From IMG/VR virus record IMGVR_UViG_3300037963_002983: 64,000 nucleotides of DNA. One strand, given 5' to 3'. The notes beneath the pieces are model-generated. The model searched no databases. It saw only the letters and a list, made by a program, of their open reading frames with translations, and had not been told where the DNA came from. Shown here in pieces: positions 12,437 through 62,274 of this stretch. The stretch is from an uncultured virus (IMG/VR IMGVR_UViG_3300037963_002983). Its lineage: Duplodnaviria > Heunggongvirae > Uroviricota > Caudoviricetes. Both the position numbers and the translations under genes were made by a program. The number at the start of each line of letters is the position of its first letter. Position 1 is the first letter of the stretch.

Positions 12437-14986
12437 TTAGTCTTCTTTTGGTGGTAATTTAAGACTACTAAACTTATCTTCATAAATATTCCACAATCCT
12501 TTATCACTATCAGTATCAGCAGGTTTCTGTTCATAGCCTGTCCATGCCAACCACATTCTTTTTCCTTTAACTTCAAGCATTCTAACATGAAGTTTAGTTT
12601 CAAATTTATTACCATCTAAGAAATATTCATGGTAGCCTTCTTTTTGAACACCTAATTTAACATCTCCACTATCAATCAGTTTACGCTTTGAAATATTCTT
12701 AGCAACAATAGCAGGGAATTTACCTGCTTTTCCAAATAATTCAAAAATATCATCTTTAGAATCAAGTCTAATCATCCAATTAATGCTTTCATCACCTAAC
12801 TTCATTACTAAATTTAGATTATCATCTTCCCTAAGATATAATTTAAATTCTCCTGTTCTATACTTTTCCGGTGTTTTGTATTCTTTTTTTATGGTGTCTA
12901 GCATTATTTTATCATTTTCAGCAAAGAGTTTCTTTGTTTTAGCATCAAAAGATATACCATCTCTATTCTCAAACCAATCCTTTACCCTAGTTAATTTACT
13001 ATCTAATATATCTTGATAAATATCTTTATGATTCTTAACTAAAAAGTTGTGGACTTCTTTAGGAGTCTTTGCTCCTTTTTGTTTTAAGTAATTAAATATA
13101 GCAACTGTAAGTTTAGATTGTTTTGTTTTCATTATTTCTTCCGCTTGATTTTTCCATAGGTCTAAATCTATAAGGGCATTTTTAGCCATTAGATTATCTT
13201 GCTCAAAACCATAAATAGTAAAACCATCCATGTCTCCTTTGATTATAATATTAGCCTCGCCGTGTATGTGGTCTGTAATGACTATTCCTTTTTCTACTTC
13301 TTCGACATTATAGTTTAATGATTTATCAGTATCTTTTACTAGCATTTGTAAAGATACTAATTTGTCCGGTGTTTCGGATTCAGCAATTTCATTTATTTTT
13401 GCCGAATAAACAACAGGCTTTCCTTTAACTTCCTTTACCTTATCTATTGAAACTCTAACAATATCTCCAACATCGGCTGAAACTTGAGTATTAGTGGCAT
13501 TACCAACATTAAGATAATTTTTACCTTCTATCTTTTCATCTCCTTCTTCTACCGGCCCTGCTCCTAACTTGTAAGAATAGTTAGAACCGCTTTTCTTTTT
13601 ATCAAGAACAATCAAGTCTAATTCTACAAAAGGCTTCCATCTAATCCACTTTGGATTTTTCTTAGTTCCTAAGAAGTATGTTGAAGTCGCATCTTTAATC
13701 ATAACTCCTTCGGCAGTAGGCATTTCCATAATCTTCTTAGAATATTCTTCAACATCTTTTAGACTATCCGCTACTCTAGTATCTTTTTTAGATGGGAATG
13801 TTAATGCTTCACTAGAATGAATAGAATAATTGTTAAACATTATTTGCATTCTGTTTTGTAAAGTATCTTCCATTAGGTTTTCTTCATTATGCCTCATAAT
13901 ATCAAAGACATGTATTCTAGGAGTTCCTTCTTTTTTACCCGCTAAATATTCTACTGCGTCTTTTCTTTTCAATGAGTCTTCACCGTCAAATAAAACTAAA
14001 GAAGCATCTAGTATGCAATCTCCAAAATGTTTTTTCTTTAGTTCTTCAATCGCTTCTTTACATTTGCTAGATATATCTTTGCCTGTATAATCATAAACTT
14101 TTATGTTTTTATCTATCTTATGGAGTTGTATTCTAAAACCATCATATTTTTCTTGAATGTAAAACTCTCCTGTAAATCCTTTGAGTTCATCCATGTCTTC
14201 TATTGTGAATATTCTATACATAGGTTTGTTGGGAATAATAAAATCGCTTTGTGCTTTTTCTTTTTCGGATTTCTTTTCTTTGAGAATAGTTTTCTTATCT
14301 TCACCTTTATCCTCTTTGGCCTTCGCTTCATCTAATTCAGTATCTATGTCTTCTAGTTCCGCCCAATCCTGTTTAGTATTCTTAGATAAGAATATTAATT
14401 CTAGCATATTCATAGCGGCTTTTACTTTTGTTTCTACTTTCTTGGAGTCTTTACCATCACCATAATGTTCTATGATGTAAAGTGCAACATCATCAACTTC
14501 TAAATCCAATCCTGTTAGACCGTCTGTAATATCATCGGGCTTCATATCTTTGATTGAATATGCTTCCTTTGGTAGTGCCTTATCATCTTCTCTAATAGCG
14601 TAGTGAACAAACTTAATCATAAGTTCCGGTGATTCTAATAATGCTTCTAACACATTACCTTTGAACTTTTTAGCGAAGGGGTCGCTAACTTCATCGGAAG
14701 AATATCTCAGTGCTTTGATTGCCTCATACAACTTTTCAGCATTGTTAGTGCTAACATCGGAAACATCATTTGATTCTAATAAGTCTTCATCAATATAATC
14801 CTTAAGTTCATTTGAAAGAGCATCGGTCATTTCATATGCTTCTTTGATTTTATTTACTGCGTTTCTCCATTTAGAACCGTATTCCTTTGGGTCGGTTCTT
14901 GCTGAAAGATAAGCGACTCTCGTTCTTTCAAAGAGTCTTAGAATATCTGTGGATATTGACTTATCCTTCTCAATAAGGAGAGGCAT
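12437..14986 (-). CDS. Multidomain ATP-dependent DNA ligase-like protein in the head module
   Basis: EKYDG, VFDIM, EGVMIK and KWIRWK motifs plus an OB domain; the C-terminal region resembles a degenerate LigD phosphoesterase. Confidence 0.75.
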   Translation of the reverse strand: MPLLIEKDKSISTDILRLFERTRVAYLSARTDPKEYGSKWRNAVNKIKEAYEMTDALSNELKDYIDEDLLESNDVSDVSTNNAEKLYEAIKALRYSSDEVSDPFAKKFKGNVLEALLESPELMIKFVHYAIREDDKALPKEAYSIKDMKPDDITDGLTGLDLEVDDVALYIIEHYGDGKDSKKVETKVKAAMNMLELIFLSKNTKQDWAELEDIDTELDEAKAKEDKGEDKKTILKEKKSEKEKAQSDFIIPNKPMYRIFTIEDMDELKGFTGEFYIQEKYDGFRIQLHKIDKNIKVYDYTGKDISSKCKEAIEELKKKHFGDCILDASLVLFDGEDSLKRKDAVEYLAGKKEGTPRIHVFDIMRHNEENLMEDTLQNRMQIMFNNYSIHSSEALTFPSKKDTRVADSLKDVEEYSKKIMEMPTAEGVMIKDATSTYFLGTKKNPKWIRWKPFVELDLIVLDKKKSGSNYSYKLGAGPVEEGDEKIEGKNYLNVGNATNTQVSADVGDIVRVSIDKVKEVKGKPVVYSAKINEIAESETPDKLVSLQMLVKDTDKSLNYNVEEVEKGIVITDHIHGEANIIIKGDMDGFTIYGFEQDNLMAKNALIDLDLWKNQAEEIMKTKQSKLTVAIFNYLKQKGAKTPKEVHNFLVKNHKDIYQDILDSKLTRVKDWFENRDGISFDAKTKKLFAENDKIMLDTIKKEYKTPEKYRTGEFKLYLREDDNLNLVMKLGDESINWMIRLDSKDDIFELFGKAGKFPAIVAKNISKRKLIDSGDVKLGVQKEGYHEYFLDGNKFETKLHVRMLEVKGKRMWLAWTGYEQKPADTDSDKGLWNIYEDKFSSLKLPPKED

Positions 14987-25075: not shown

Positions 25076-25215
25076 TTCTTATCCCTCGCTTTTTCCCAAC
25101 AACTATCACAATACCCATAGGGGTGAACTTCTTTTGCAGTATAGCATCTTCCACAATATCTAATTTCTAATTTTCTTTTTTCAACTATCCATTCTTCTAT
25201 TTCTTGTTTATTCAT
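25072..25215 (-). CDS. 47 aa zinc-finger protein (not in the ORF track)
   Basis: MNKQEIEEW...YCGRCY...YCDSCW; ATGA overlaps at both ends. Confidence 0.55.
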   Translation of the reverse strand: MNKQEIEEWIVEKRKLEIRYCGRCYTAKEVHPYGYCDSCWEKARDKK

Positions 25216-26567
25216 ACTAGTATTCCCCCTATATTTTCCATACTATCCATTAAAGACATTTTGCAGTTATCTTTGTATTTCTGTATGTTGTCAAGATATA
25301 TTCCTTCTTTTAACCAATCGAAGCCTACATGGTCTTTGTGATTCTCCCACTTCATTAACTTAAATATCTCATCACATCTTCCTTTATACCAATCCTCTTT
25401 CTTGTATGATTTCTTCATTCGTATAAGTTCCATAAGTAATTTAGCATTACCTTTCTTCAGTCTAAAGTGCGGTAGGCACTTTTCTAATAGGCCGTAAACA
25501 TCATCTTGAGAATAAAAATTTAATCTTTGAACAGGTCTAGTTTGTTGTGGAGATTTTTGATTTAGATGTAATTTGCCAAAGCCTATACTTTTGTGCATCT
25601 CTTCCATAAATGCCCTTCCTCTTTCTCCCGTAGCAATTAACCCTACTCTTGGATTGTGGTTTCTATCCATTGTAATATATCCATCGGAGTCTATGAACGC
25701 TGCCGTATAAGCCCAAATATTTTTCTTGAGCATTGTTGGTAATTTGTAATATGAACCATTAACATTAGCAACATCAAGTTTCTTTACCATTTTAGAAATC
25801 ATATTTGTTGTAGTGCTTTTGTGTAGATTGTTCGGCATTCTATCATGTATTTGTTTAGCACCGATAGAAGGACTCTTAATAATTTCACTTTCAATAAAAG
25901 ACATAATCCTTTCTTTTTTGCTTTTAGTTATGGATTGGTCGGTAATATTTTTTATTTGTTTCTTATAATCTCTTTTAGCAAGACGACATTCTTTTTCAAT
26001 TTGAGCATATTCTTTTGAGTATGCCATACCATCTTTCTTTAAATCCCCTTCCCAATACTTACAGATAGAGTCAATAATATCTCTTCTACCATTAACGCTA
26101 TCAATTTTATTTATTTTTCTTAAGTCTTTTTCATTAAAACCCATTTTTAATACTGCGGGTTTATAGGGTCTTAACCAATAAATAGAATCTATGCACTTAT
26201 TGATATGGTCGGAGTAGCCATCAATAATAGTATCAATTGCCTTAGCCATTTTAATTCTTTGCTCTCCTTTTAGTTTTCTTCTAGCCTTTCTCATCTTTTT
26301 AACTAAATCGGGAATGTTTTCTCCATCTATTGAATAATCGTTGGGAAAAGAACTTAGTTGTTTTCTAGCATCACTCGCATTAATGTTTAAATTCTTAGAA
26401 AGTAAATTTACTGCTTCGTAATCAGACATAATATAATCATCAACAGAAGCCAATTTAGTTCCTAATGCTTCCTCAATCTCGTCTTTAGTTTCATCTTGTT
26501 CTTCCTGCAATTCTGCAAGGCGATTCATTTGTTGCGAGCCTTCTCTATATTCTTCGGCAGTTGGCAT
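25212..26567 (-). CDS. LAGLIDADG endonuclease-domain protein with long N-terminal extension
   Basis: WAYTAAFIDSDGYI, IGFGKL, LPHFRLKK. Confidence 0.75.
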   Translation of the reverse strand: MPTAEEYREGSQQMNRLAELQEEQDETKDEIEEALGTKLASVDDYIMSDYEAVNLLSKNLNINASDARKQLSSFPNDYSIDGENIPDLVKKMRKARRKLKGEQRIKMAKAIDTIIDGYSDHINKCIDSIYWLRPYKPAVLKMGFNEKDLRKINKIDSVNGRRDIIDSICKYWEGDLKKDGMAYSKEYAQIEKECRLAKRDYKKQIKNITDQSITKSKKERIMSFIESEIIKSPSIGAKQIHDRMPNNLHKSTTTNMISKMVKKLDVANVNGSYYKLPTMLKKNIWAYTAAFIDSDGYITMDRNHNPRVGLIATGERGRAFMEEMHKSIGFGKLHLNQKSPQQTRPVQRLNFYSQDDVYGLLEKCLPHFRLKKGNAKLLMELIRMKKSYKKEDWYKGRCDEIFKLMKWENHKDHVGFDWLKEGIYLDNIQKYKDNCKMSLMDSMENIGGILV

Positions 26568-39840: not shown

Positions 39841-40143
39841 TTATTCACCTTCAACAATTCTTTTTACATTGTTTAACATTGTATTCTTTACTATTTCATA
39901 CAGTCTTTTATCTTTAATAAAAAATGGAGTAATAATTATTGTGTATTTTTTTCCTAGCCATTCCGATGAGTAATATAAATTTGCCTCTCTAAGTAATTTA
40001 ATAATTTTTATCATATCATCACTTCTCGCAAATTCATCATCAATATACGCAGTATAAACTCGCTTATTGTTAGGGTCGCCAGTGCGCTCGCCTTCTTCTA
40101 TCTTAAACTCAATTTTTTGTTTAAGAATATCTTCCCATGTCAT
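39841..40143 (-). CDS. W-tagged hypothetical protein
   Basis: MTWEDILK. Confidence 0.55.
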   Translation of the reverse strand: MTWEDILKQKIEFKIEEGERTGDPNNKRVYTAYIDDEFARSDDMIKIIKLLREANLYYSSEWLGKKYTIIITPFFIKDKRLYEIVKNTMLNNVKRIVEGE

Positions 40144-40152
40144 ATTATTCAC

Positions 40153-40395
40153 CTATTCATATAATTCATATAATGCTTCTATATCAGTAAACTTCTCTAA
40201 TAGGTTAATAGCGGCTTTTGCTAAAGGTCTAGCATCTACATATTCCGTATGTTTCCCATGTCTATTTACAACCATTTTTCCTTCTTTCTCCTCGCTCATA
40301 ATATAAATTATACCATCAACATAATGTTTAACTTTATTTAGAACAGTGATGGGTTTTTCAGGTATGTTCTTTTTAATCTCATCTTTCCATGTCAT
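40153..40395 (-). CDS. W-tagged hypothetical protein
   Basis: MTWKDEIK. Confidence 0.55.
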   Translation of the reverse strand: MTWKDEIKKNIPEKPITVLNKVKHYVDGIIYIMSEEKEGKMVVNRHGKHTEYVDARPLAKAAINLLEKFTDIEALYELYE

Positions 40396-40404
40396 ATTAT
40401 TCAC

Positions 40405-40791
40405 CTAAATTTTAAAATCCTTTTCTCCAAATATTTTACTAATCATCTTACTCAAAGTAATACGGCTAGCACCCGCAGTAGCCCATTCTTCTCCATCTCT
40501 TGAGGCTTGGAGTAAAGTATATCTCAAAATATATTCTCTTTCATCCATACCTTTCAAATATTTGTCTTCTGTTCCATCCTCTTTCATTTCATGTAAATTT
40601 GCTTGAGCATCTTCATAATATTTCATAGCCTTACCATCGGTCATTCTATACAATATCTTTAAAAATATCTCCAATAATTCATCTTGGTCGTATTCATTAA
40701 TTAAGAAATAAAGAGAAGACCGGCCTCTCCTGTCAAAAGGCCCTCTAATTCCTCTTTTAGTTTTTTTAGCAATTATATCTTCCCATGTCAT
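40405..40791 (-). CDS. W-tagged hypothetical protein
   Basis: MTWEDIIAK. Confidence 0.55.
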   Translation of the reverse strand: MTWEDIIAKKTKRGIRGPFDRRGRSSLYFLINEYDQDELLEIFLKILYRMTDGKAMKYYEDAQANLHEMKEDGTEDKYLKGMDEREYILRYTLLQASRDGEEWATAGASRITLSKMISKIFGEKDFKI

Positions 40792-40833
40792 ATTATTCAC
40801 CTTTTATTTTAAACGACTTTTTCAAAAATTTTT

Positions 40834-41100
40834 CTAGGAATTTTTTTCTTTCTTTCTTTTAGCCTCTTGTTCTAAATCATATGCCCCACTTGACATATAG
40901 GCTTCTCTCATACCATCGGGTGTATTTGCTCTATCTCTTGCTATCCTTTCATCCATAGCCTTAAATCGAGCCTTATCGTCTTTAGCCCTTTCCTCATATT
41001 CTCTTTTTTCTCGGTCAAATACAAGTTTTTGATACTCCTTTTCTTGTTCGGGAGTCATATACTTTACTTTGTCTTTTTTAACAATATCTTTCCAATTCAT
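40834..41100 (-). CDS. W-tagged hypothetical protein
   Basis: MNWKDIVK. Confidence 0.55.
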   Translation of the reverse strand: MNWKDIVKKDKVKYMTPEQEKEYQKLVFDREKREYEERAKDDKARFKAMDERIARDRANTPDGMREAYMSSGAYDLEQEAKRKKEKNS

Positions 41101-41128
41101 TTAATCATCTCCTTTTTCAAAAATTTTT

Positions 41129-41380
41129 CTAGGATTTGTCATAGCCTTGCCTCGCCTCTTTTATGAAGGCTAATCCATTTTCCATATTCCTAGAAACAGA
41201 CTTCTTTATGTAGTCTATTTCCTTAAGAAGAGTATCTTTATCTGCTTCTTGTTTAATCTCATCTTCAAGCCTCATCACTTGTGTGGATAATCTACCCATG
41301 TCAAATTTAAAGAACTCTAATATTTTGAAATACCTTTGGTCGGATATTTTTTCTTTTTTAATCGTATTTTCCCAATTCAT
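41129..41380 (-). CDS. W-tagged hypothetical protein
   Basis: MNWENTIK. Confidence 0.55.
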   Translation of the reverse strand: MNWENTIKKEKISDQRYFKILEFFKFDMGRLSTQVMRLEDEIKQEADKDTLLKEIDYIKKSVSRNMENGLAFIKEARQGYDKS

Positions 41381-41711: not shown

Positions 41712-41953
41712 GCAACTTCCTCCTTGACATATCGTAATGTATTAAGGGTAATAAACATAGCAGTTTTATGGGCTAACATGTTAATATCAATGGTTAATTG
41801 GCCAATTTTAACTAAAAGTGGTTAATTAACCTATTTTAACAAAGAAAAAAATTTTGGAACAAAGCCATATGGTTGTAGAACGGCCTAAATTGTAATACCA
41901 TATGGTGTATCTTTTTGGAAACCCGACTATATACTAAATACTGTTATAATAAC

Positions 41954-42423: not shown

Positions 42424-42468
42424 AAAAACGGCCTCATTCTTAGGAGTGGGGTCGTTTTTCCCTTTTTT
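42424..42468 (+). terminator. Hairpin with C-TTAG-G loop plus T tract
   Basis: AAAAACGGCCTCATTC-TTAG-GAGTGGGGTCGTTTTT. Confidence 0.6.
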
Positions 42469-42587
42469 AGGGTTGCATCTATAACGCTTCGCTTGATTCA
42501 AAAAGAACTATCGATGCAACCATATGGTGTTACTTTGTTGAACCCGACTATATACTAAATTACAATATAATAATAAGAGGTAATAAC

Positions 42588-42881: not shown

Positions 42882-43022
42882 ATGGACTTAGAAGAAAGAA
42901 TAGAAGAAGAAAAAACATATTTAAGAATACTAAAATATCTAAAGGAACAACCAAGCAATAGAAACGCTGATTCAGCCATAAAACAAATTGAGAAGGCTCT
43001 TCTAAAATTGGACTTTTATTAA
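42882..43022 (+). CDS. 46 aa helical peptide
   Basis: MDLEERIEEEK... preceded by GAGGCGA. Confidence 0.45.
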   Translation: MDLEERIEEEKTYLRILKYLKEQPSNRNADSAIKQIEKALLKLDFY

Positions 43023-43035
43023 AGATGATGATTAA

Positions 43036-43080
43036 AAAAACCCCCCTTTTCTTAGGAATTGGGGGGTTTTTCTCTTTTTT
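43036..43080 (+). terminator. Hairpin with C-TTAG-G loop plus T tract
   Basis: AAAAACCCCCC...GGGGGGTTTTT. Confidence 0.6.
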
Positions 43081-43231
43081 AGGGTTGTGTCTCGTAGTAA
43101 TAACAGTCAAAAAGAATTACGGACACAACCATATGGTTTACTTTGAAAACCCAATTCATATACTATATTGCCCCTTAGTATTGCTTCATGGGGTATTGTA
43201 TGGTTAGCATACAATCTAGGAGATGAAAAAT

Positions 43232-43735
43232 ATGGAATATAATAAATTAGTAGAAAAAACAAACAACATTATAACTTGGTTAGATGTAAACGATGTTGGT
43301 TCAATGGACACAGTTCTAAGGGGCTTAATCACATCAGCACAAGTCGAAGGTCAAACTGAAAAACAATACGAGCAATTTTGGGCTAGTATTCGCTCCCTAT
43401 GCGGTACTCTCCCAAACTCTCCTATTCGCAAAGGTACTCAACAAATATTGCCAGCACAAGTACAGGCCGTTGCGGATTCTGTTGTGAATCGGGTAATAAA
43501 TGCTTTTGTGGGTATTGGTGATAGTGAACTTATGGTTGATACTCTTATGCCAATGCGTAATACATCCGGTGAAAAGTTCGCTGATATTCAAGCATTAGCA
43601 GAATACTTCGGTGGTAGAGTTAGAAGACTTTTGACTGACTCTTACAAAGCAGGTAATTGGAACGGGGAATTGACTAAAGATAATATCACAGGTCTTACCC
43701 TTCCGGTCAAGGAAGCAAAGGAGGCTTCCAAGTAA
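43232..43735 (+). CDS. Paralog family member 1
   Basis: QFWASIR, LPAQVQ, YKAGNWNG; similar to the ORFs at 44662 and 46973. Confidence 0.7.
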   Translation: MEYNKLVEKTNNIITWLDVNDVGSMDTVLRGLITSAQVEGQTEKQYEQFWASIRSLCGTLPNSPIRKGTQQILPAQVQAVADSVVNRVINAFVGIGDSELMVDTLMPMRNTSGEKFADIQALAEYFGGRVRRLLTDSYKAGNWNGELTKDNITGLTLPVKEAKEASK

Positions 43736-43967
43736 GTCTAATCGGTGCAATACCCCATGTCGCACCTATCCTATTCATTGGGAGCATAGCGGAACTCATT
43801 TTTAAAACTAAATATGAAATCTAAGAGTTAAAACCGCTATGCTCCCGAAGTTTTTTTTAGGGTTGCTTCTACTAGTATAAATACGCCAAAGATTAGTGAA
43901 GCAACCATATGGTGTTACTTTTGCTTAACCCAATTATATACTATACTACACCTTAGTAATACATCAA

Positions 43968-44508
43968 GAGGTAAGGTGTCTAAGCAAAAACCCCGTCTAC
44001 AAATGTAGACTAGTTTCAAGAATTGACTTGAAGTAAAGGGGGCAGAAAAGTCAAGGCGATGGACTGTAAAAAATCACCCGACACTACCTCACCTATTCAT
44101 GGAGTATCATATTGAAAAAAGCCAACCTAAGCGAGATGCTGGGAACTTCGGGGAAGCGAAGTAGCAAGGCAAGCCAACAGTGCATAACTGACTTTCTAAA
44201 GAAATACTCCACCTATTCATGAGGGTATTATGCATGAGAGAAAGGTGGAGACCTAATACTTGGTGACTTATCAGTAATGGTAAAATCATCGGACTTGTAA
44301 ATACCCTCTCCTATTCCAATGGTTATTAGTGGCCATAACACTATTGAGAAACGAAGGCGAAAAGTCAAGATTGAACACATAAGACGGTAGGAAATAGTAA
44401 GAGATTGTAAGTCATACCAATACTAGTTGGGACTAGTATGACCTCTCATCAAACATGCTAAGTATCACGCAGTCACTTGTCTTGACGAAGTAGCCGGAGT
44501 TTCTCAAT
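43968..44508 (+). ncRNA. Putative array of structured, end-paired non-coding RNAs
   Basis: Promoter upstream, T tract downstream, no plus-strand ORF in the track; closing stems separated by ACCTATTCAT linkers. Confidence 0.6.
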
Positions 44509-44661
44509 TTTTTTTAAGGTTGCTTCTTCCAACCTACGGTAACAAAAGAATGGGGAAGCAACCATATGGTGTGGCTTTGTCGAACCCGATTATATACTAT
44601 ACTACCCCCTAGTATTGCTTCAATGGGTTGGAGTAGTGGTAAAACACAGGAGGAAATTATT

Positions 44662-45120
44662 ATGGAATTACAAAAGACAATTAATAGAATGAAAAGCATG
44701 CAAGCAACTATGAAAGCACAAAAGGTCAAGAATCCGGCATTGTCGGGTCTTCTAGATGAAGGAGTGCAAGCAACTGATGAAACATCGGCAAATCAATTTT
44801 GGGCTAGTATTAGAGCATTAGTTAAGGCTATGAGTTTAGACAACTTGATACCTTCTCGCTCTACTCTACCGGAAGGAGTTCAAGCAAGCATTCAAACTGC
44901 ATGTGCTGATGTTGAAGAAGCATCAATCGCTTTCTTCAATCACGGCATGGTTAGTCAAGTTATCTTTAGACATGGTAAATCCGGCGGTGGCACTTTTGCT
45001 ACTGCTGAAGACTATGCTAAGGTAATGTCTCAAATGACTGCCGGAAAACTACGACAACACTACAACAATAAAACTTGGGATGGTTCACTTCCCGTAGCCA
45101 TAACGGAGGCTCTACAATAA
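44662..45120 (+). CDS. Paralog family member 2
   Basis: GGAGG RBS; QFWASIR, RHGKSGGG, YNNKTWDG. Confidence 0.7.
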   Translation: MELQKTINRMKSMQATMKAQKVKNPALSGLLDEGVQATDETSANQFWASIRALVKAMSLDNLIPSRSTLPEGVQASIQTACADVEEASIAFFNHGMVSQVIFRHGKSGGGTFATAEDYAKVMSQMTAGKLRQHYNNKTWDGSLPVAITEALQ

Positions 45121-45382
45121 ATCCGTTGAAGCCACAAAACAACCCATTGTCGCACCTACTATTCAACTAATTAGTCGCAGGGGTGAAGAAACTCTTACAG
45201 GGCAGAGAATAAGTCCTACTTAAGAGAAATGAAAAAATTCACTCACCCCTGCGGTCTATGCAGTTTTTTTTAAGGTTGTTTCTACTAGCCTACGGCGACA
45301 AAAGATTAGTGAAACAACCATATGGTTCACTTTGAGAACTCGATTAATATACTATACACCCTCATTATATTGGTGATAAACT

Positions 45383-46132
45383 ATGGCAATAGAATATAAT
45401 AGAACTATGAAAATAAGATATGAGCATGATGAAAGACTCAATCAAAAAGAAGAAGCGAAGTTGGCTCAACAACTACAAAAGAAAGGTTTGACAATGATGA
45501 CAACCTATTGGGGCGAATTTCCCGAATACGGCTATAATACCATAACTACGAAAACAACAAGACACGGTATATACATTGATGATGAACTAATCTTTACTGT
45601 TAAATACATTTCAACTGCAAATGAAATAGTTGAAGGTTTGTCAAATAAATTTGATAATGTAAGCACTGATAGAATAGTAAGTGAAACCACTAAGAAAGAT
45701 TGGGTAAATCCAAAGGGTGATTATCTAGTCCCTGCTTTTGATGATTCATCCTACCTTTCTTACCCACCAACAGAAGATAGTCTATTTGACTTTAAAGAAG
45801 TTGAAAGAGATAATAAAATAACTTTGGACAATGGAGTTCAAATTAGAATAGAACTTGAGAATAACTATGATGGTATGGAATTGATTTTCAAAACAATTTG
45901 GAATTGTGAAACAGTCCAAAGAAAGGAAACAATTGAAGAATACATGGTGGCTTTCCCACTTGAAATACTTGGTAAAGTCCAAAGTGTAGTTGAAAGAGTC
46001 TTGAAGACAAAACAATTCGGTTATGATGTTGATAGTGTTGATATTGATTGTAATTTCAAAGCAATCACTCTCAATGAAAGTAAATGCACACCCGATATTG
46101 TAAAAATGACAAGGGAGGCTAGAAACCAATGA
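45383..46132 (+). CDS. Hypothetical protein
   Basis: 249 aa; GGTGA RBS behind promoter 6. Confidence 0.65.
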   Translation: MAIEYNRTMKIRYEHDERLNQKEEAKLAQQLQKKGLTMMTTYWGEFPEYGYNTITTKTTRHGIYIDDELIFTVKYISTANEIVEGLSNKFDNVSTDRIVSETTKKDWVNPKGDYLVPAFDDSSYLSYPPTEDSLFDFKEVERDNKITLDNGVQIRIELENNYDGMELIFKTIWNCETVQRKETIEEYMVAFPLEILGKVQSVVERVLKTKQFGYDVDSVDIDCNFKAITLNESKCTPDIVKMTREARNQ

Positions 46133-46538: not shown

Positions 46539-46836
46539 TGGACAGGCAAGGAGGCAGGGGTGTCCACTAAAATGTCCACTTTTTATTGTGTAGTTTCTTG
46601 ATAGTAATTAATTTATTATTAATATTATTAATAATAATATATATTATGGACATTATGGACATTATGGACACTATATCTATCTTACCCCCTCCCCCTACTT
46701 CTAATAACTATTAAGATTCTTTATAGTTATTTTTATTCCATATATCCTAGAGGGGTGTCCAATATGTCCATAATGTCCAACTTCCTCGCAGTCCATCGTT
46801 TTGGGGGTGTCCATTGAGTGTCCATTGGAGTGTCCA
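46539..46836. repeat. TGTCCA/TGGACA iteron cluster around an AT-rich palindrome; probable replication origin
   Basis: 12 hexamer copies; AT-only inverted repeat at 46613-46637. Confidence 0.65.
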
Positions 46837-46972
46837 TAAAATTCAGTAAGGGAAAATTGCTCATATTGAAATTAACGGTAATAGTTTCTTTATCGTTTAT
46901 TTTAAACATAGTAAAGTCTCTAGGATAACTATGAAGGCTCATTTTATATGTAAATTCAATATAAAGAAAATA

Positions 46973-47443
46973 ATGGAAGAAGATAAGTGGCAACATATCA
47001 AATTAGATGTAGAAGAATATTTAGAGTCGGGGGCTGAATTGTCCGAAGGCATTGTTCAAGTAATTAGACTAAACCTAACAATTGGTGAAACTCAACCAAA
47101 CGAAAGAAAGGGTATTGTTAAGGCGATAAAGGCTATGTTAGCAGGTAAAGAAGGAACGCCTTTCCACAAAGGAAACAAGAGCGACCTACCGGCAAAGGTA
47201 AGAGTAGTCGTAGAGCAATTAGGTAAAACAATGTATAATGCTTCTATAACATACATGGGGTATCATGCAGTTATGCAATACATTACCCCAAGACACAAGA
47301 AATCCGGTGGAGGTTTTTACAAGAGTGATAAGGAGTTCGCATTGGCTAATAAAAAGAGGCTAATGACGAGGCTCAAAAAAGAGTATCGAGATGGGCATTG
47401 GGATGGGACAGTAGATGGACTAATGCCTCTTGAAGAGGAGTAA
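46973..47443 (+). CDS. Paralog family member 3
   Basis: LPAKVR, PRHKKSGGG, YRDGHWDG. Confidence 0.65.
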   Translation: MEEDKWQHIKLDVEEYLESGAELSEGIVQVIRLNLTIGETQPNERKGIVKAIKAMLAGKEGTPFHKGNKSDLPAKVRVVVEQLGKTMYNASITYMGYHAVMQYITPRHKKSGGGFYKSDKEFALANKKRLMTRLKKEYRDGHWDGTVDGLMPLEEE

Positions 47444-53517: not shown

Positions 53518-54663
53518 ATGAGAGAAATAAGAATGAGAATAAGTAAGCCTCAAGACGGAGGGATTGATTATGCGACTATTATTAGCAGTGATTTGTTTGA
53601 AAGAGCAGGTCATGTTATGCAAACAATTTACCCCGATAGAGGCGCAAAAGACCCACTTCATCACTCAATAAAGTTATGGTTCAAACAAATGCTAACTAAG
53701 CCTAAAACAACTAGATGGGGACATACTAATAGTAAGCCCAATCAATTGAGGGAAGGTGATTTTGAAGGAGTATTCTACATAAAACAATGCCCTATATCTT
53801 TGATTAGAAAGGGCAGTAAGTATAGAATAAATGGTAAAGCGGAAAGTATCGCTACCATTAGTAATGTGCTTGCTAGAGTATTGTTTAAATCCTGCTTTAC
53901 TGATGATAACGGAGAATTGATGAAAACTTTATTTTCAGCACTAAGCCTATCCGAAGACATAAAATATGTCTTGGAAAATAGAGTTCCTTATCATTTCTTT
54001 AATGACTTTGCTAAGGAAGAAGTAAGATTAAATGTTGCTCAAATAGGAGATAAAGAATTTGCCTTAGAGATTGGTGACGGTGTTTGGGGTAATATGTCAA
54101 TGAAAGATTTACAGTCCTTTTGTGGCTATTATATACATGGTAGACAAAATAGTAAATTTAAGAGAATGGGCCTAAAAAGACTCTATCAAACTATTATTGG
54201 TGAAGAACCTTTAGTTTCGGACATTAAGAGAATGAAAGCATTCTTGATGCAAAATAGAACACAAGACTTGGTGGAGAATAGGGCTAAGCAATTATTAACA
54301 GATATGGCTAACAAACATCCTACTAGAATAAAAATGGTATGGGATGATGGAGAACCACAGACTATGTATGTTGTTGGTAATGAATATGATTGGAAGTTAC
54401 AGAATAGCCAATTCAAAAGTAACATACAAATGGTATCTACTTTTGTATATCAACCTAAAGGAGACGGTAAGAAATGGGGTTGGGTAGGCCCAATTTGTAT
54501 AGATAATATGGCTAGAGGTTCTTCTCTAGGCGACCAATTCGCAACAAGAGCATTAGCAGTTATGAATGATAATTTAACGGTAGCAAGAGTAAATACGATT
54601 AAAGGCTACCTAAAAACAAAACCAAATAAAAAACAAAGAGTTGATATTGATGAAATGTCTTGA
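53518..54663 (+). CDS. Hypothetical protein, possibly with a C-terminal E2-like domain
   Basis: GPICID resembles the E2 active-site GxIC motif; lies between the Ubl and E1 genes. Confidence 0.4.
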   Translation: MREIRMRISKPQDGGIDYATIISSDLFERAGHVMQTIYPDRGAKDPLHHSIKLWFKQMLTKPKTTRWGHTNSKPNQLREGDFEGVFYIKQCPISLIRKGSKYRINGKAESIATISNVLARVLFKSCFTDDNGELMKTLFSALSLSEDIKYVLENRVPYHFFNDFAKEEVRLNVAQIGDKEFALEIGDGVWGNMSMKDLQSFCGYYIHGRQNSKFKRMGLKRLYQTIIGEEPLVSDIKRMKAFLMQNRTQDLVENRAKQLLTDMANKHPTRIKMVWDDGEPQTMYVVGNEYDWKLQNSQFKSNIQMVSTFVYQPKGDGKKWGWVGPICIDNMARGSSLGDQFATRALAVMNDNLTVARVNTIKGYLKTKPNKKQRVDIDEMS

Positions 54664-55483
54664 ATGTAATGGAAATAAATTTACAATGAATGAAAGAATG
54701 GGAGAACTAACTTGTAATGATTGTGGCCTAGTAGCCATAACCGAGTTGTTTGAGCAGAGCGTAAGTTCTTTCGATAGAAAGGGAGACTTAATTCACTCGC
54801 CGGACAAAGTATTAGGTTCAGCCCCTACTAGTTTAGTTCCTAGTTGGGCCAAATCTAATAATGTTCATTTGGAAAATGGGCTTAGAATGTGTAATATGTT
54901 GTTATCAACATTGATGCCAAAACACCCATTGAAAGATAGAGTCGAAGAGTGCTATATTCAACTATACAGAAAGAATGTTTTGACTACTCTAGGTATTGAA
55001 GAAAAAGCAACTGCGGTTGTTTATTATGTTCTAAAAGAAAACAGAACTCCTATTCCACTCAAGGAATTAAGGAGAGAATTTTCTTGTAATACTAGAACTT
55101 TGAACAGGGCAATAAAAAGAATTAACAAACACTATAATGCTCCTAGAAAGGATGGAGCAGACCCAACTTACATGTTGAAAAGAATAACTTCTAAAATAAC
55201 ACTTGATTTGGAGTTTGCTTCAAAGTGTCAAGAAGTATTAGAAGTGTTTGAAACAATAACTAAAGATATGGATTGTGCTAAAGGCACAGTCTATTATGCT
55301 AGTATTTGTTGGATTACTAAGAATATGTTTTTGCATCCAATAAAACAAAAAGATATTGCGAGAAAGGCCAAAGTGTCTATCTCGTCGATAAAATTAACCA
55401 CAAAGAAACTGTTGGCTTTGATTGGTTATGAGAATTGTTCTCAAATAAAAGGAAAACAGATAAATGAAATAAGGAGAAATTGA
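54650..55483 (+). CDS. tfb: Transcription factor TFIIB/TFB homolog
   Basis: CLEC...GELTCNDCGLV zinc ribbon followed by two cyclin-like repeats with HTH. Confidence 0.8.
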   Translation: MKCLECNGNKFTMNERMGELTCNDCGLVAITELFEQSVSSFDRKGDLIHSPDKVLGSAPTSLVPSWAKSNNVHLENGLRMCNMLLSTLMPKHPLKDRVEECYIQLYRKNVLTTLGIEEKATAVVYYVLKENRTPIPLKELRREFSCNTRTLNRAIKRINKHYNAPRKDGADPTYMLKRITSKITLDLEFASKCQEVLEVFETITKDMDCAKGTVYYASICWITKNMFLHPIKQKDIARKAKVSISSIKLTTKKLLALIGYENCSQIKGKQINEIRRN

Positions 55484-60699: not shown

Positions 60700-62274
60700 A
60701 TGATAGATTGGAAGATGATGAGCCGACTGTTAGAATCCACAAAGGACAAAACACCAACTCAACAAGTAAAATTGATAGCAACAGAACTAGATAAGTTTGC
60801 TTCTAGTAAAAGTGTAGCAATACAAATTTTGGCTAGGGAATATCCTAGTAATAATATTGGTTTAGCAAAGGCTAAGTCTTGGCTAACTAAGATTTTTAAT
60901 TGCTTTGATGATGAAATAGAAGTATTATATGCAATAGATGGAGAATTAGGAGAAGCAGTATATTTACTAGACGCAGGAGCAGAAACTCAAAGAAACATAG
61001 GTATTGTTTCTGTTCTAAGAGTTTTAGAGAATGCTTGTGGTTCTGTAAATGATGCTTCTTTTCTTTTGGTGCAAGATGTTTTATTAAAAATGTCAGCACT
61101 AGAAAGAAAATGGTTTGTTAGATACTGGTTGGGTTCACCAACAAACGGTATTGATAGTGGAGTTGTTAAGAAAGTTTTAGCAAAACACTACGATAAGAAA
61201 ATTAGTGAAGTTAAGAAACATGCTAATTTCAACAGTTTAGGTAATCTTTGTGTATATTATGAAATGAAAGAAGAACCGCCCATGAAATTATCACATGGAA
61301 CTTTTGTAAAGCCAATGTTAGCAAAAGAAGTGCCTATGAATAAATGGCCTAAAGATAAAATTGTTGATTATAAGTATGATGGTAATAGATACCAAATACA
61401 CAAACAAGGAGATAATGTAATTATCTTTAATCGTAAGGGTTCTATTGTCACACCACAGTTTCAAGATGTTGTAGAGCAAGTTAGAGAATATGACTCTCTT
61501 GCAGAAACAGAAGTGAATTGTATTCTTGATGGTGAAATATATCCAATTAAAGATGATGGTTCACCTGCTGAACATAAACTAATGGGAACAAGAGTTCATT
61601 CTAAAGACCATGCGGAAGCAAGAGAGAAAGTTAAAGTCAAGTGGGTTATATTTGATTGTCTTAAGATTGGTGATGAAACTATAATGGATTATCCATATAG
61701 TCGTAGATTAGAGTGTTTAGAAGCAGACGGTAGCCCTTATGGTATAACTATGCCCGACCAAGCGCATAGAATGGAAGAGGGCGGTGATGTTCTAGCATTC
61801 TATAATAGAGCGATTAACGATGGTTTTGAGGGCATTATTGTCAAGGATATTAGTTTACCCTATGAAGCAGGAAAGAGAAGCGCAGGATGGGCTAAATACA
61901 AGCCTCCTCGCATTGAATTAGATGTGGCTATTACTACTGCTAAATATGGCGAAGGCTCAAGAGCAAATGTGTTTGGAACTTTTGGTATTTCTGTAAAGAG
62001 CGATAGTGGTTTCAAATCGGTAGGTTCTATTGGAACGGGTTTTAGTGATGCTGATTTAGTTTGGCTAACAAATGAACTAAGAAAGAATGTAGAAACTTAC
62101 GATAAAGGAACATATAACTTATTACCGAGAGTTGTTTTAGAAGTATCAGCAGACTTAGTTACTCAAGATGCAAAGGGCAACTATGGGTTAAGATTTCCTA
62201 GATGTAAAAGAATACGACATGACAAGTTTGTGGCTGATATTAATACAATAGAAGATGTGGAGGATTTAGTTTGA
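60700..62274 (+). CDS. lig: ATP-dependent DNA ligase (archaeal type)
   Basis: KPMLA, YKYDG, ILDGE, IFD, EGIIVK, WAKYK, LRFPR. Confidence 0.93.
   Translation: MIDWKMMSRLLESTKDKTPTQQVKLIATELDKFASSKSVAIQILAREYPSNNIGLAKAKSWLTKIFNCFDDEIEVLYAIDGELGEAVYLLDAGAETQRNIGIVSVLRVLENACGSVNDASFLLVQDVLLKMSALERKWFVRYWLGSPTNGIDSGVVKKVLAKHYDKKISEVKKHANFNSLGNLCVYYEMKEEPPMKLSHGTFVKPMLAKEVPMNKWPKDKIVDYKYDGNRYQIHKQGDNVIIFNRKGSIVTPQFQDVVEQVREYDSLAETEVNCILDGEIYPIKDDGSPAEHKLMGTRVHSKDHAEAREKVKVKWVIFDCLKIGDETIMDYPYSRRLECLEADGSPYGITMPDQAHRMEEGGDVLAFYNRAINDGFEGIIVKDISLPYEAGKRSAGWAKYKPPRIELDVAITTAKYGEGSRANVFGTFGISVKSDSGFKSVGSIGTGFSDADLVWLTNELRKNVETYDKGTYNLLPRVVLEVSADLVTQDAKGNYGLRFPRCKRIRHDKFVADINTIEDVEDLV

Follow-up and report, generated by a model that had tools for sequence, protein, structure and literature searches.

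The 64,000-nucleotide (nt) stretch of DNA in IMG/VR record IMGVR_UViG_3300037963_002983, referred to below as the window, derives from an uncultured virus, most likely a tailed virus of archaea, and carries two paralogous plus-strand genes, A (43232-43735) and B (44662-45120). In the messenger RNAs (mRNAs) predicted for both genes, the first nucleotides are complementary to a segment a few nucleotides past the stop codon, and the entire open reading frame (ORF) lies between the two arms. As judged from comparative sequence analysis, this helix exists, is selected at the level of the plus-strand RNA and is tied to one gene family. The favoured reading, to which a probability of about 0.5 was assigned, is that the arms close the mRNA non-covalently as a 'panhandle', which would control its stability and/or its translation. 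The stems, the shared linker, the 3' domains and the ORFs listed in a preliminary description of this region were all present.

Helices enclosing genes A and B

In gene A, positions 43187-43200 pair with 43746-43759 (14 pairs including one U.G), and a repeat search returned the same element as a 17-nt inverted repeat, 43182-43198 and 43748-43764, with 88% complementarity. In gene B, 44621-44630 pair with 45140-45149 (10 pairs); as an inverted repeat the element covers 44616-44630 and 45140-45154. Outward of each stem, a symmetric 2x2 loop with UU opposite UC is followed by two G-C pairs. With these pairs counted, the helix of gene A has its ends at G43183 and C43763, and that of gene B at G44617 and C45153.

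The 5' arm of mRNA A (43183-43208, plus strand) enters the stem from C43187 onward. Its first two nucleotides, G43183-C43184, pair with G43762-C43763, and the next two, U43185-U43186, form the tandem mismatch. The 3' arm (43737-43763, plus strand) has its core at 43746-43759 and the end G-U-C-G-C at 43759-43763, and the helix also extends inward, to about 25 pairs. The 5' arm of mRNA B (44617-44630, plus strand) consists of GC, UU and then CAAUGGGUUG; its conserved 3' arm (45140-45153, plus strand) reads CAACCCAUUG, followed by UCGC.

The role of chance in the window was assessed by shuffling the flanks (100 nt upstream and 90 nt downstream) 200 times. The score of the gene A helix (34) was reached by none of the 200 shuffles and that of the gene B helix (27) by 4, the best-scoring helix of gene B being formed with a proximal partner (45120-45132) and not with the conserved distal arm. 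The third paralog (46973-47443) scored 18, a value reached by 97 of the 200 shuffles; it has no helix and served as internal negative control. The proximal partner of the gene B 5' arm (plus strand) offers 13 pairs including G.U, has no internal loop and overlaps the stop codon. It occurs only in the window and, with one mismatch, in the related locus L001, and is not found in L002; it may represent an alternative conformation of the 5' arm.

Minimum free energy and centroid folds of the whole mRNAs retained the terminal helix for both genes (z -4.5 and -5.2). When the window was scanned for a GCUUC...GNNGC closure, only genes A and B stood above the shuffle level. The remaining 10 hits had 8-10 pairs and lay mostly on the non-coding strand, and shuffled sequences gave 0-4 hits each. 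Elsewhere in the window, cassettes with the promoter type of genes A and B lack the closure.

Conservation and covariation across relatives

The comparative set comprised 31 distinct ORFs of the family with enough flanking sequence, taken from the window and from IMG/VR loci. The motif TGCT(T/C)C was located within 100 nt upstream of 18 of them (window and 11 IMG/VR contigs); the other 13, including the third paralog of the window and its orthologs, lack it. All 18 motif-bearing genes showed at least 8 (8-16) contiguous pairs to a downstream segment ending in G-N-N-G-C, and the identity of the helix-bearing proteins to that of gene A goes down to about 18-29%. Two of the 18, L015 and L016, are nearly identical, and 17 distinct arm pairs were aligned from the helix base.

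The resulting design reads, from the 5' end, GC, a tandem mismatch, C, and then 8-16 contiguous pairs, reaching about 25 pairs in the orthologs of gene A. The G-C and C-G pairs at the base and the C-G pair after the mismatches are invariant, and the base 5' of the G is unpaired in 11 of the 17 arm pairs. The first mismatch is U opposite U, C, A or G; the second is U opposite U in 15 of 17. Stem positions 1, 2, 3, 7, 8 and 9 show three to four standard pair types each with hardly any mismatches, and positions 4-6 are almost always G-C. Overall, 93.2% of the cells were paired, a figure inflated both by the choice of the 3' anchor for most contiguous pairs and by the relatedness of the sequences, against a shuffle mean of 72.4% (sd 1.9, maximum 80.1%; 0 of 1000 shuffles reached the observed value). 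Pairing fell to 41-53% when the partner register was shifted by 1-3 nt.

Individual changes follow the same pattern. In L001, an A inserted in the 5' arm is compensated by a T inserted in the 3' arm, and in gene B of L002 a T-to-G change is offset by A-to-C. RNAalifold, run on a plain MAFFT alignment of three orthologs of gene A, predicted 25 terminal pairs with none broken, one of them seen as G-C, G-U and A-U. Within the stems of the 17 arm pairs, G.U pairs are present and A.C pairs are not; since G.U is tolerated and A.C is not, the plus strand as RNA appears to be the selected form. The preliminary description had made its proposal depend on conservation of the flanking complementarity in homologous cassettes, and this complementarity proved both conserved and covarying.

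The core 5' arm spans nucleotides +1 to about +18. Its end is separated from the AUG by 30-53 nt, and the GGAG-type Shine-Dalgarno sites lie outside the core helix. The stop codon precedes the core 3' arm by 5-19 nt; the extended helix starts 1-2 nt after the stop.

Other long-range helices between 5' and 3' flanks, of 11-16 base pairs (bp) and without the GCUUC/GNNGC base, were observed at three extra paralogs of the family, L035, L036 and L037. These loci belong to contig IMGVR_UViG_3300021958_000021, which at 184.7 kb has about twice the usual genome length.

Promoters and transcript ends

The promoter cassette of gene A (43075-43182, plus strand) contains a T-run, the inverted repeat GGTTG...CAACC, the palindrome CCATATGG, CTTTG and a TATA-like box at about 43156-43166. 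That of gene B (44508-44616, plus strand) contains the repeats, a match to CAACCATATGGT and a TATA-like hexamer. Matches to CAACCATATGGT with at most one mismatch numbered 8 (0.17 expected), all of them within 41.8-45.4 kb.

Automated placement located a TATA-like hexamer 25-27 nt upstream of the G of TGCTTC in 8 of the 18 genes, those of the window included. Inspection by eye added four more at this distance (L004, L010, L018 and L005), the automated site of L010 being wrong. A distance of 25-27 nt is the usual one between TATA box and start in archaea. By this promoter geometry, the helix starts at the predicted transcription start (+1). Applied by eye to the neighbouring cassettes at 42517 and 45315, the same TATA spacing gives plausible short leaders with Shine-Dalgarno sites.

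RNA data were taken from Logan contigs of two metatranscriptome runs (X19 and X20), which represent relatives at 85-99% identity; such contigs cannot prove ends. Parts of the stretch are free of RNA contigs, and a third RNA run, X21, from the sample that also gave the DNA run X10, had none on it; neither was taken as evidence of an absent transcript. Contigs of X20 begin at about 43189 and at about 44615-44617, a weak hint that transcription starts at the helix base. The promoter cassettes and upstream sequence were covered by none of the seven X19 and X20 contig pieces listed; the DNA run X10 covers 29 of 30 bins. Runs of eight T (T8), the terminator type expected in archaea, close the units at 43851-43858, 44508-44515 and 45264-45271, the first of them being the likely terminator of mRNA A. 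The exact transcript ends given here are predicted ones.

Cassettes of this kind are repeated at 42466-42560, 43083-43170, 43861-43950, 44518-44605 and 45274-45360, and also around 41864-41915, with the order T-run, GGTTG-NNN-C...G-NNN-CAACC, palindrome CCATATGG, CTTTG and TATA-like box. The variable middle of the inverted repeat covaries between the arms across cassettes. Such a cassette may function as the operator of a viral regulator, or it may yield a structured RNA upon read-through.

Linkers, 3' domains and the non-coding transcript

Genes A and B continue alike at the 3' arm: 43752-43768 and 45142-45158 are 88% identical, and CCTATTCA and CTATTCA follow in both. At the RNA level, each of the two helices is followed by UCGCACCUA..CUAUUCA and then by a stem-closed domain of 67-78 nt. 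The linker of gene A (43764-43779, plus strand; ACCUAUCCUAUUCAUU) is lineage-specific. The 3' domain of mRNA A (43780-43858, plus strand) is closed by a stem at 43780-43846, in which 43780-43792 and 43834-43846 form 13 perfect bp (z -6.5 when folded by itself; none of 200 shuffles as good), and ends in T8. The corresponding part of gene B (45154-45271, plus strand) consists of the linker (45154-45175), the 3' domain (45176-45253) and T8 (45264-45271); here 45176-45199 pair with 45230-45253 around an 11-bp core (z -4.7; again 0 of 200).

Comparable Y-shaped domains (z -4.2 to -5.3) follow the helix in L001 and L002, with different linker sequences. Such domains have an outer stem of 13-18 pairs, an inner stem of the CUCAUA/UAUGAG type and an apical hairpin. 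L005 has a plain hairpin of 11-12 bp instead. Seven genes that are more distantly related have a short CCCC-loop-GGGG hairpin immediately 3' of the helix, and then a U-rich tract. Because of this arrangement in the distant genes, the ancestral design seems to comprise the closing helix, a terminal hairpin and a U-tract, and the large 3' domain and the CCUAUUCA linker seem to be elaborations of the lineage of the window. The proposal that both mRNAs are followed by the same linker and 3' domain therefore describes this lineage and does not extend to the family in general.

Between the two genes, folding predicted a non-coding RNA (ncRNA; 43968-44507, plus strand) built of four stem-closed modules (43968-44090, 44100-44211, 44221-44308 and unit D, about 44318-44507), with T8 after it at 44508-44515. 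The modules are separated by unpaired (A)CCUAUUC(A/C) linkers of 9-10 nt. The stem-linker-stem organisation that had been proposed as common to coding and non-coding units thus holds within the window, including its ncRNA, but its linker and large 3' domain are specific to the lineage. The linker motif occurs 6 times across the window where 2.8 matches are expected, a count that 7 of 100 shuffles reached, so that it is not enriched.

The first 60 nt of unit D (44318-44507, about 190 nt) are nearly invariant in five viral genomes. In the alignment of these genomes, 12 of 39 predicted pairs showed compensatory change, and the closing stem as well as internal helices covary. A 19-mer of unit D was found exactly in 4 IMG/VR contigs. 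Rfam 15 gave no match at the gathering score in the whole window; at E<=10, the interval 43000-45400 gave 12 matches, all far below the gathering scores and none on the arms or on unit D.

One X20 contig covers the 3' arm of gene B and the next 25 nt, entering the linker and 3' domain; another bridges the linkers before and after ncRNA module 3. Since these contigs cross linkers, unprocessed RNA exists, at a depth similar to that of other pieces.

Possible roles of the helix

In the favoured reading, an archaeal TATA-type promoter would give rise to one monocistronic mRNA per gene. Its first nucleotides, 5'-GCUUC..., would pair with the segment that lies a few nucleotides past the stop codon and ends in ...G-N-N-G-C. 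The whole reading frame would be looped out by a helix of 14-25 bp that starts at +1 and contains the conserved tandem U.U/U.Y mismatch, and a stable hairpin or domain and an oligo-U terminator would follow downstream. Such closure would hide the 5' end and bring the stop and start codons close together, and it could set the lifetime and/or the translation of two mRNAs that arise from a promoter-dense region at the strand switch. The benefit would be protection from end-dependent decay and/or recycling of ribosomes; in bacterial work, a 5' end paired from the first base is the classic escape from 5'-end-dependent decay. Of processing, stabilisation and circularisation, the three outcomes offered in the preliminary description, stabilisation is the most plausible, and the other two gained no support: a bulge-helix-bulge motif is lacking and RNA contigs cross the linkers.

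Several points weigh against end-to-end closure as the function. The helix of several genes comes as close as 1-9 nt to the stop codon; a terminating ribosome would need to melt it, so that the closed form and active translation cannot fully coexist. As termination would require part of the helix to melt, translation and closure are probably coupled. Stem B by itself is borderline above chance (4 of 200 shuffles) and has the alternative partner 45120-45132, so the case for it rests on the comparative evidence. In that evidence, the pairing percentage is inflated in the two ways described above, and the two outermost G-C pairs never vary, which makes covariation uninformative on them. The evidence on transcript ends comes from Logan contigs of relatives, which cannot show true starts or ends, and a role in stability or translation is read from the anatomy of the transcript. 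An extension of the favoured reading regards these transcripts as natural closed-loop archaeal mRNAs, in which terminating ribosomes would return to a start codon at a distance of about 30-50 nt, or the helix would act as a protective clamp operated by translation; it was considered doubtful. A bolder version still has the closed ends trimmed and ligated into covalently circular mRNAs.

The helix and an N-C-C tail could instead be a processing signal for a host or viral endoribonuclease, either an RNase P- or RNase Z-like enzyme acting on an acceptor-stem-like minihelix or a double-strand-specific enzyme. The ORF module would then be cut from the 3' domain, and the ncRNA modules would be cut apart at the CCUAUUCA linkers. 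Consistent with this, every module of the window, coding or not, is stem-closed and followed by a single-stranded (A)CCUAUUC(A/C) linker, N-C-C follows the helix in 15 of the 18 genes (by eye) and recalls the 3' end of tRNA, and within one genome the tails of paralogs are more alike than those of orthologs. Processing was nevertheless rated as unlikely. X20 contigs extend through the gene B 3' arm to the linker and domain and also cross the linkers around module 3, and the 'CC' of the distant genes simply belongs to the terminator hairpin, as its first arm. ARAGORN found no tRNA-like genes in the window, Rfam gave no match at gathering score and none of relevance at E<=10, and the linker motif lacks enrichment across the window. 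A protein operator was thought improbable. In this case the helix, with its GC/GC clamp, tandem U.U and G-rich arm, would be the binding site of the encoded paralog as an autoregulator or of another viral or host factor. The helix is strictly tied to the gene family, which it has accompanied through duplications and far-reaching divergence (18 of 31 ORFs), is absent from other window cassettes of the same promoter type, and conserves a non-Watson-Crick feature within covarying pairs, which is typical of protein recognition sites. Against an operator stand an isoelectric point (pI) below 6 in 15 of 17 paralogs, unusual for RNA-binding proteins, an AlphaFold model that resembles generic three-helix bundles only, and a third paralog type without the helix.

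For covalent circularisation, the ends would have to be cut and ligated by the splicing endonuclease with RtcB, or joined as juxtaposed ends by an Rnl3-type ligase. The host is archaeal and the helix sets the 5' end beside downstream sequence. According to excerpts of PMC7714728, inverted repeats on either side of archaeal rRNAs are cut at bulge-helix-bulge motifs and circularised, the motif being a helix of 4 bp with a 3-nt bulge at each end, the two bulges lying on opposite strands. With 3-bp flanks and Watson-Crick pairs only, however, this motif occurred in 0 of the 18 genes, and with 2-bp flanks in 2 of 18; the hits in 9 of 18 obtained when G.U was permitted were slipped G/C runs, none at that place in the genes of the window. 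In all folds the helix is continuous and contains a symmetric 2x2 loop. The transcript extends beyond the 3' arm, both ligase-domain proteins of the window resemble DNA ligases, and no RNA ligase is evident. The Logan contigs of the two RNA runs included no back-joined one, which is a weak test as contigs drop such forms, and circularisation was regarded as very improbable. Hardly any credence was given to a feature of the DNA itself, such as the inverted repeats of a mobile or recombining cassette or a cruciform, although inverted repeats do flank a discrete gene unit and several copies of the family occur per genome. The conserved arm bases (tandem U.U/U.Y) are not mutually complementary, G.U pairs are tolerated and A.C pairs are not, the 5' arm lies at the predicted transcription start, the 3' arm falls within the transcribed unit ahead of the terminator, and paralog arms differ within one genome, unlike a shared recombinase site.

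Relation to known systems

The 3' untranslated region (UTR) of icaR in Staphylococcus aureus reportedly pairs with the Shine-Dalgarno region, blocking translation and inviting RNase III. The likeness to the mRNAs described here, as far as excerpts of PMC3868564 go, is that in icaR, too, the 5' and 3' UTRs of one mRNA pair and the reading frame is looped out. In genes A and B, by contrast, the partner of the 3' arm is the very start of the mRNA, the Shine-Dalgarno site is outside the core helix and the host is archaeal; pairing of the 3' UTR with the ribosome-binding site, as in icaR, was not found. In haloarchaea, translation control needs both UTRs together, and a prokaryotic counterpart of mRNA 'circularisation' was discussed (Brenneis and Soppa 2009, PMC2636863, in excerpt). 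The excerpted parts of that paper report no direct base pairing of the UTRs, and a search of its main text for base pairs gave nothing, whereas the covarying helix described here would provide a physical mechanism. The processing stems of archaeal 16S and 23S rRNA are likewise long-range inverted repeats that enclose a whole functional RNA (PMC7714728, in excerpt). In the present case there is no bulge-helix-bulge, the enclosed RNA is an mRNA, and no cleaved or circular forms were seen in contigs.

Stem-loops at the 5' terminus stabilise bacterial mRNAs, and segmented negative-strand RNA viruses carry panhandles. The helices of genes A and B share with these the pairing from the extreme 5' nucleotide, the conserved termini and a non-canonical interruption. 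They differ from the bacterial stem-loops in that the partner is about 0.5 kb downstream, past the stop codon, and not part of a local hairpin, and from the viral panhandles in that the RNA is the mRNA of a DNA virus and not a replicating RNA genome. Full-text literature searches did not find such an mRNA-closing structure described. In the passages of three magrovirus papers (PMC5434244, PMC11706807 and PMC10160649) retrieved by term, promoters, UTRs and ncRNAs are not mentioned. The structure is thus well supported by the comparisons made here; the kind of element, 5'/3'-UTR pairing, is known, and the form that reaches from +1 to beyond the stop codon appears to be new.

Little is known about how archaea and their viruses control genes after transcription, and magroviruses, which are abundant in the ocean, have to our knowledge never been cultivated. 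If the closed-loop extension of the favoured reading is true, the helix would be the first sequence-defined physical basis for the cooperation of 5' and 3' UTRs reported in archaeal translation. The helix is also a candidate means of protecting mRNAs or recycling ribosomes in a domain of life without caps or poly(A)-based loops. It defines an RNA design that is specific enough to be tested, with closure between the first nucleotide of the mRNA and a site just beyond the stop codon, preserved across deep divergence, and it marks a conserved, unannotated gene family (281 clusters) as special to these viruses. The promoter cassette, the +1 motif, the closing helix and the ncRNA unit D are signatures that can be searched for in marine metatranscriptomes.

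The protein family

The ORFs of genes A and B are open and paralogous (BLASTP E 9e-08). Paralog A (plus strand) encodes an acidic, all-alpha protein of 167 amino acids (aa) without a family match, and paralog B (plus strand) a protein of 152 aa; the third paralog (46973-47443, plus strand) is of the C type and has no closing helix. Proteins of the family have 147-192 aa. Related complete genomes carry three copies each, and the 184.7-kb contig carries eight. A profile search of 1.84 billion representatives returned 281 family clusters at E<=0.001.

None of the three window paralogs matched Pfam or PHROGs, and 14 distant representatives of the family had no match in Pfam. The best score in the ESM Atlas was 0.86, under the lead level of 0.9. 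Foldseek against the PDB with an AlphaFold model (mean pLDDT 81) gave nothing at E<=0.001, and VIA-align returned generic three-helix bundles only (Z up to 8.3 over residues 1-69). In alignment A2, the pI was below 6 in 15 of the 17 helix-bearing paralogs, the exceptions being B of the window (7.87) and B of L002 (8.52).

Virus and host

The window has a GC content of about 34%, and its coding strand switches near 41.8 kb. The minus-strand half encodes the large terminase, portal, prohead protease and HK97-type capsid protein. The plus-strand half encodes a UvrD-type helicase, a GroEL-type chaperonin, an ATP-dependent DNA ligase and a ThiF-like protein, and at 54641-55483 a protein with a TFIIB-type zinc ribbon and a helix-turn-helix domain (HTH_11; 28.5 bits, below the cut-off of 29). 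The latter product is a candidate viral transcription factor for the promoter cassettes.

In GenBank, the capsid protein matched archaeal tailed viruses only (11 of 11 records), namely Haloarcula viruses and viruses assigned to Methanomassiliicoccales and Methanofastidiosa. The GroEL protein scored 394 bits to phrog_5725 and also matched Cpn60_TCP1. Related IMG/VR contigs rated 99-100% complete by CheckV measure 91.7-94.9 kb, and the runs containing the stretch are all marine or aquatic metagenomes. A blastn search against GenBank phages gave no match.

Excerpts of Philosof et al. 2017 (PMC5434244) describe halovirus-like structural genes in magroviruses and a bacterial-type GroEL in the replication block of magrovirus groups B, B1 and C. 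The virus of the window shares with magroviruses a halovirus-like HK97 capsid, a chaperonin in the replication block, related genomes of about 90-100 kb and a marine origin. On account of its gene content (capsid matches, TFIIB-type protein, GroEL and ligase) it was read as an archaeal virus, most likely a magrovirus-like tailed virus of about 93 kb that would infect marine Poseidoniales. A bacterial phage with sigma-70 promoters and intrinsic terminators was considered and dropped, as the consensus scan was unremarkable (34 promoter-like sites against 22.9 expected, 3 terminator-like sites against 3.5) and the gene content is archaeal.

Other features of the window

An 849-aa protein (12437-14986, minus strand) in the structural module has a diverged nucleotidyltransferase domain of ATP-dependent DNA ligases at residues ~250-525. 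It was considered as an RNA ligase and set aside: its best solved relatives are DNA ligases, which lends no support to circularisation. The regular ATP-dependent DNA ligase is encoded at 60700-62274. A 451-aa ORF (25212-26567, minus strand) that adjoins the large terminase gene matched an HNH endonuclease (phrog_5046, E 5e-06).

Five tandem small ORFs of 83-131 aa with the N-terminal motif M-(T/N)-W-(E/K)-(D/N)-(I/T) occupy 39841-41380 on the minus strand and form a second paralog array beside the strand switch. An AT-rich gap at 46540-46840 contains many copies of (A/G)TGTCCA on both strands and a tandem GGACATTAT repeat; it looks like a set of replication-origin iterons or a factor-binding array. 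The helix-less third paralog directly follows this gap.

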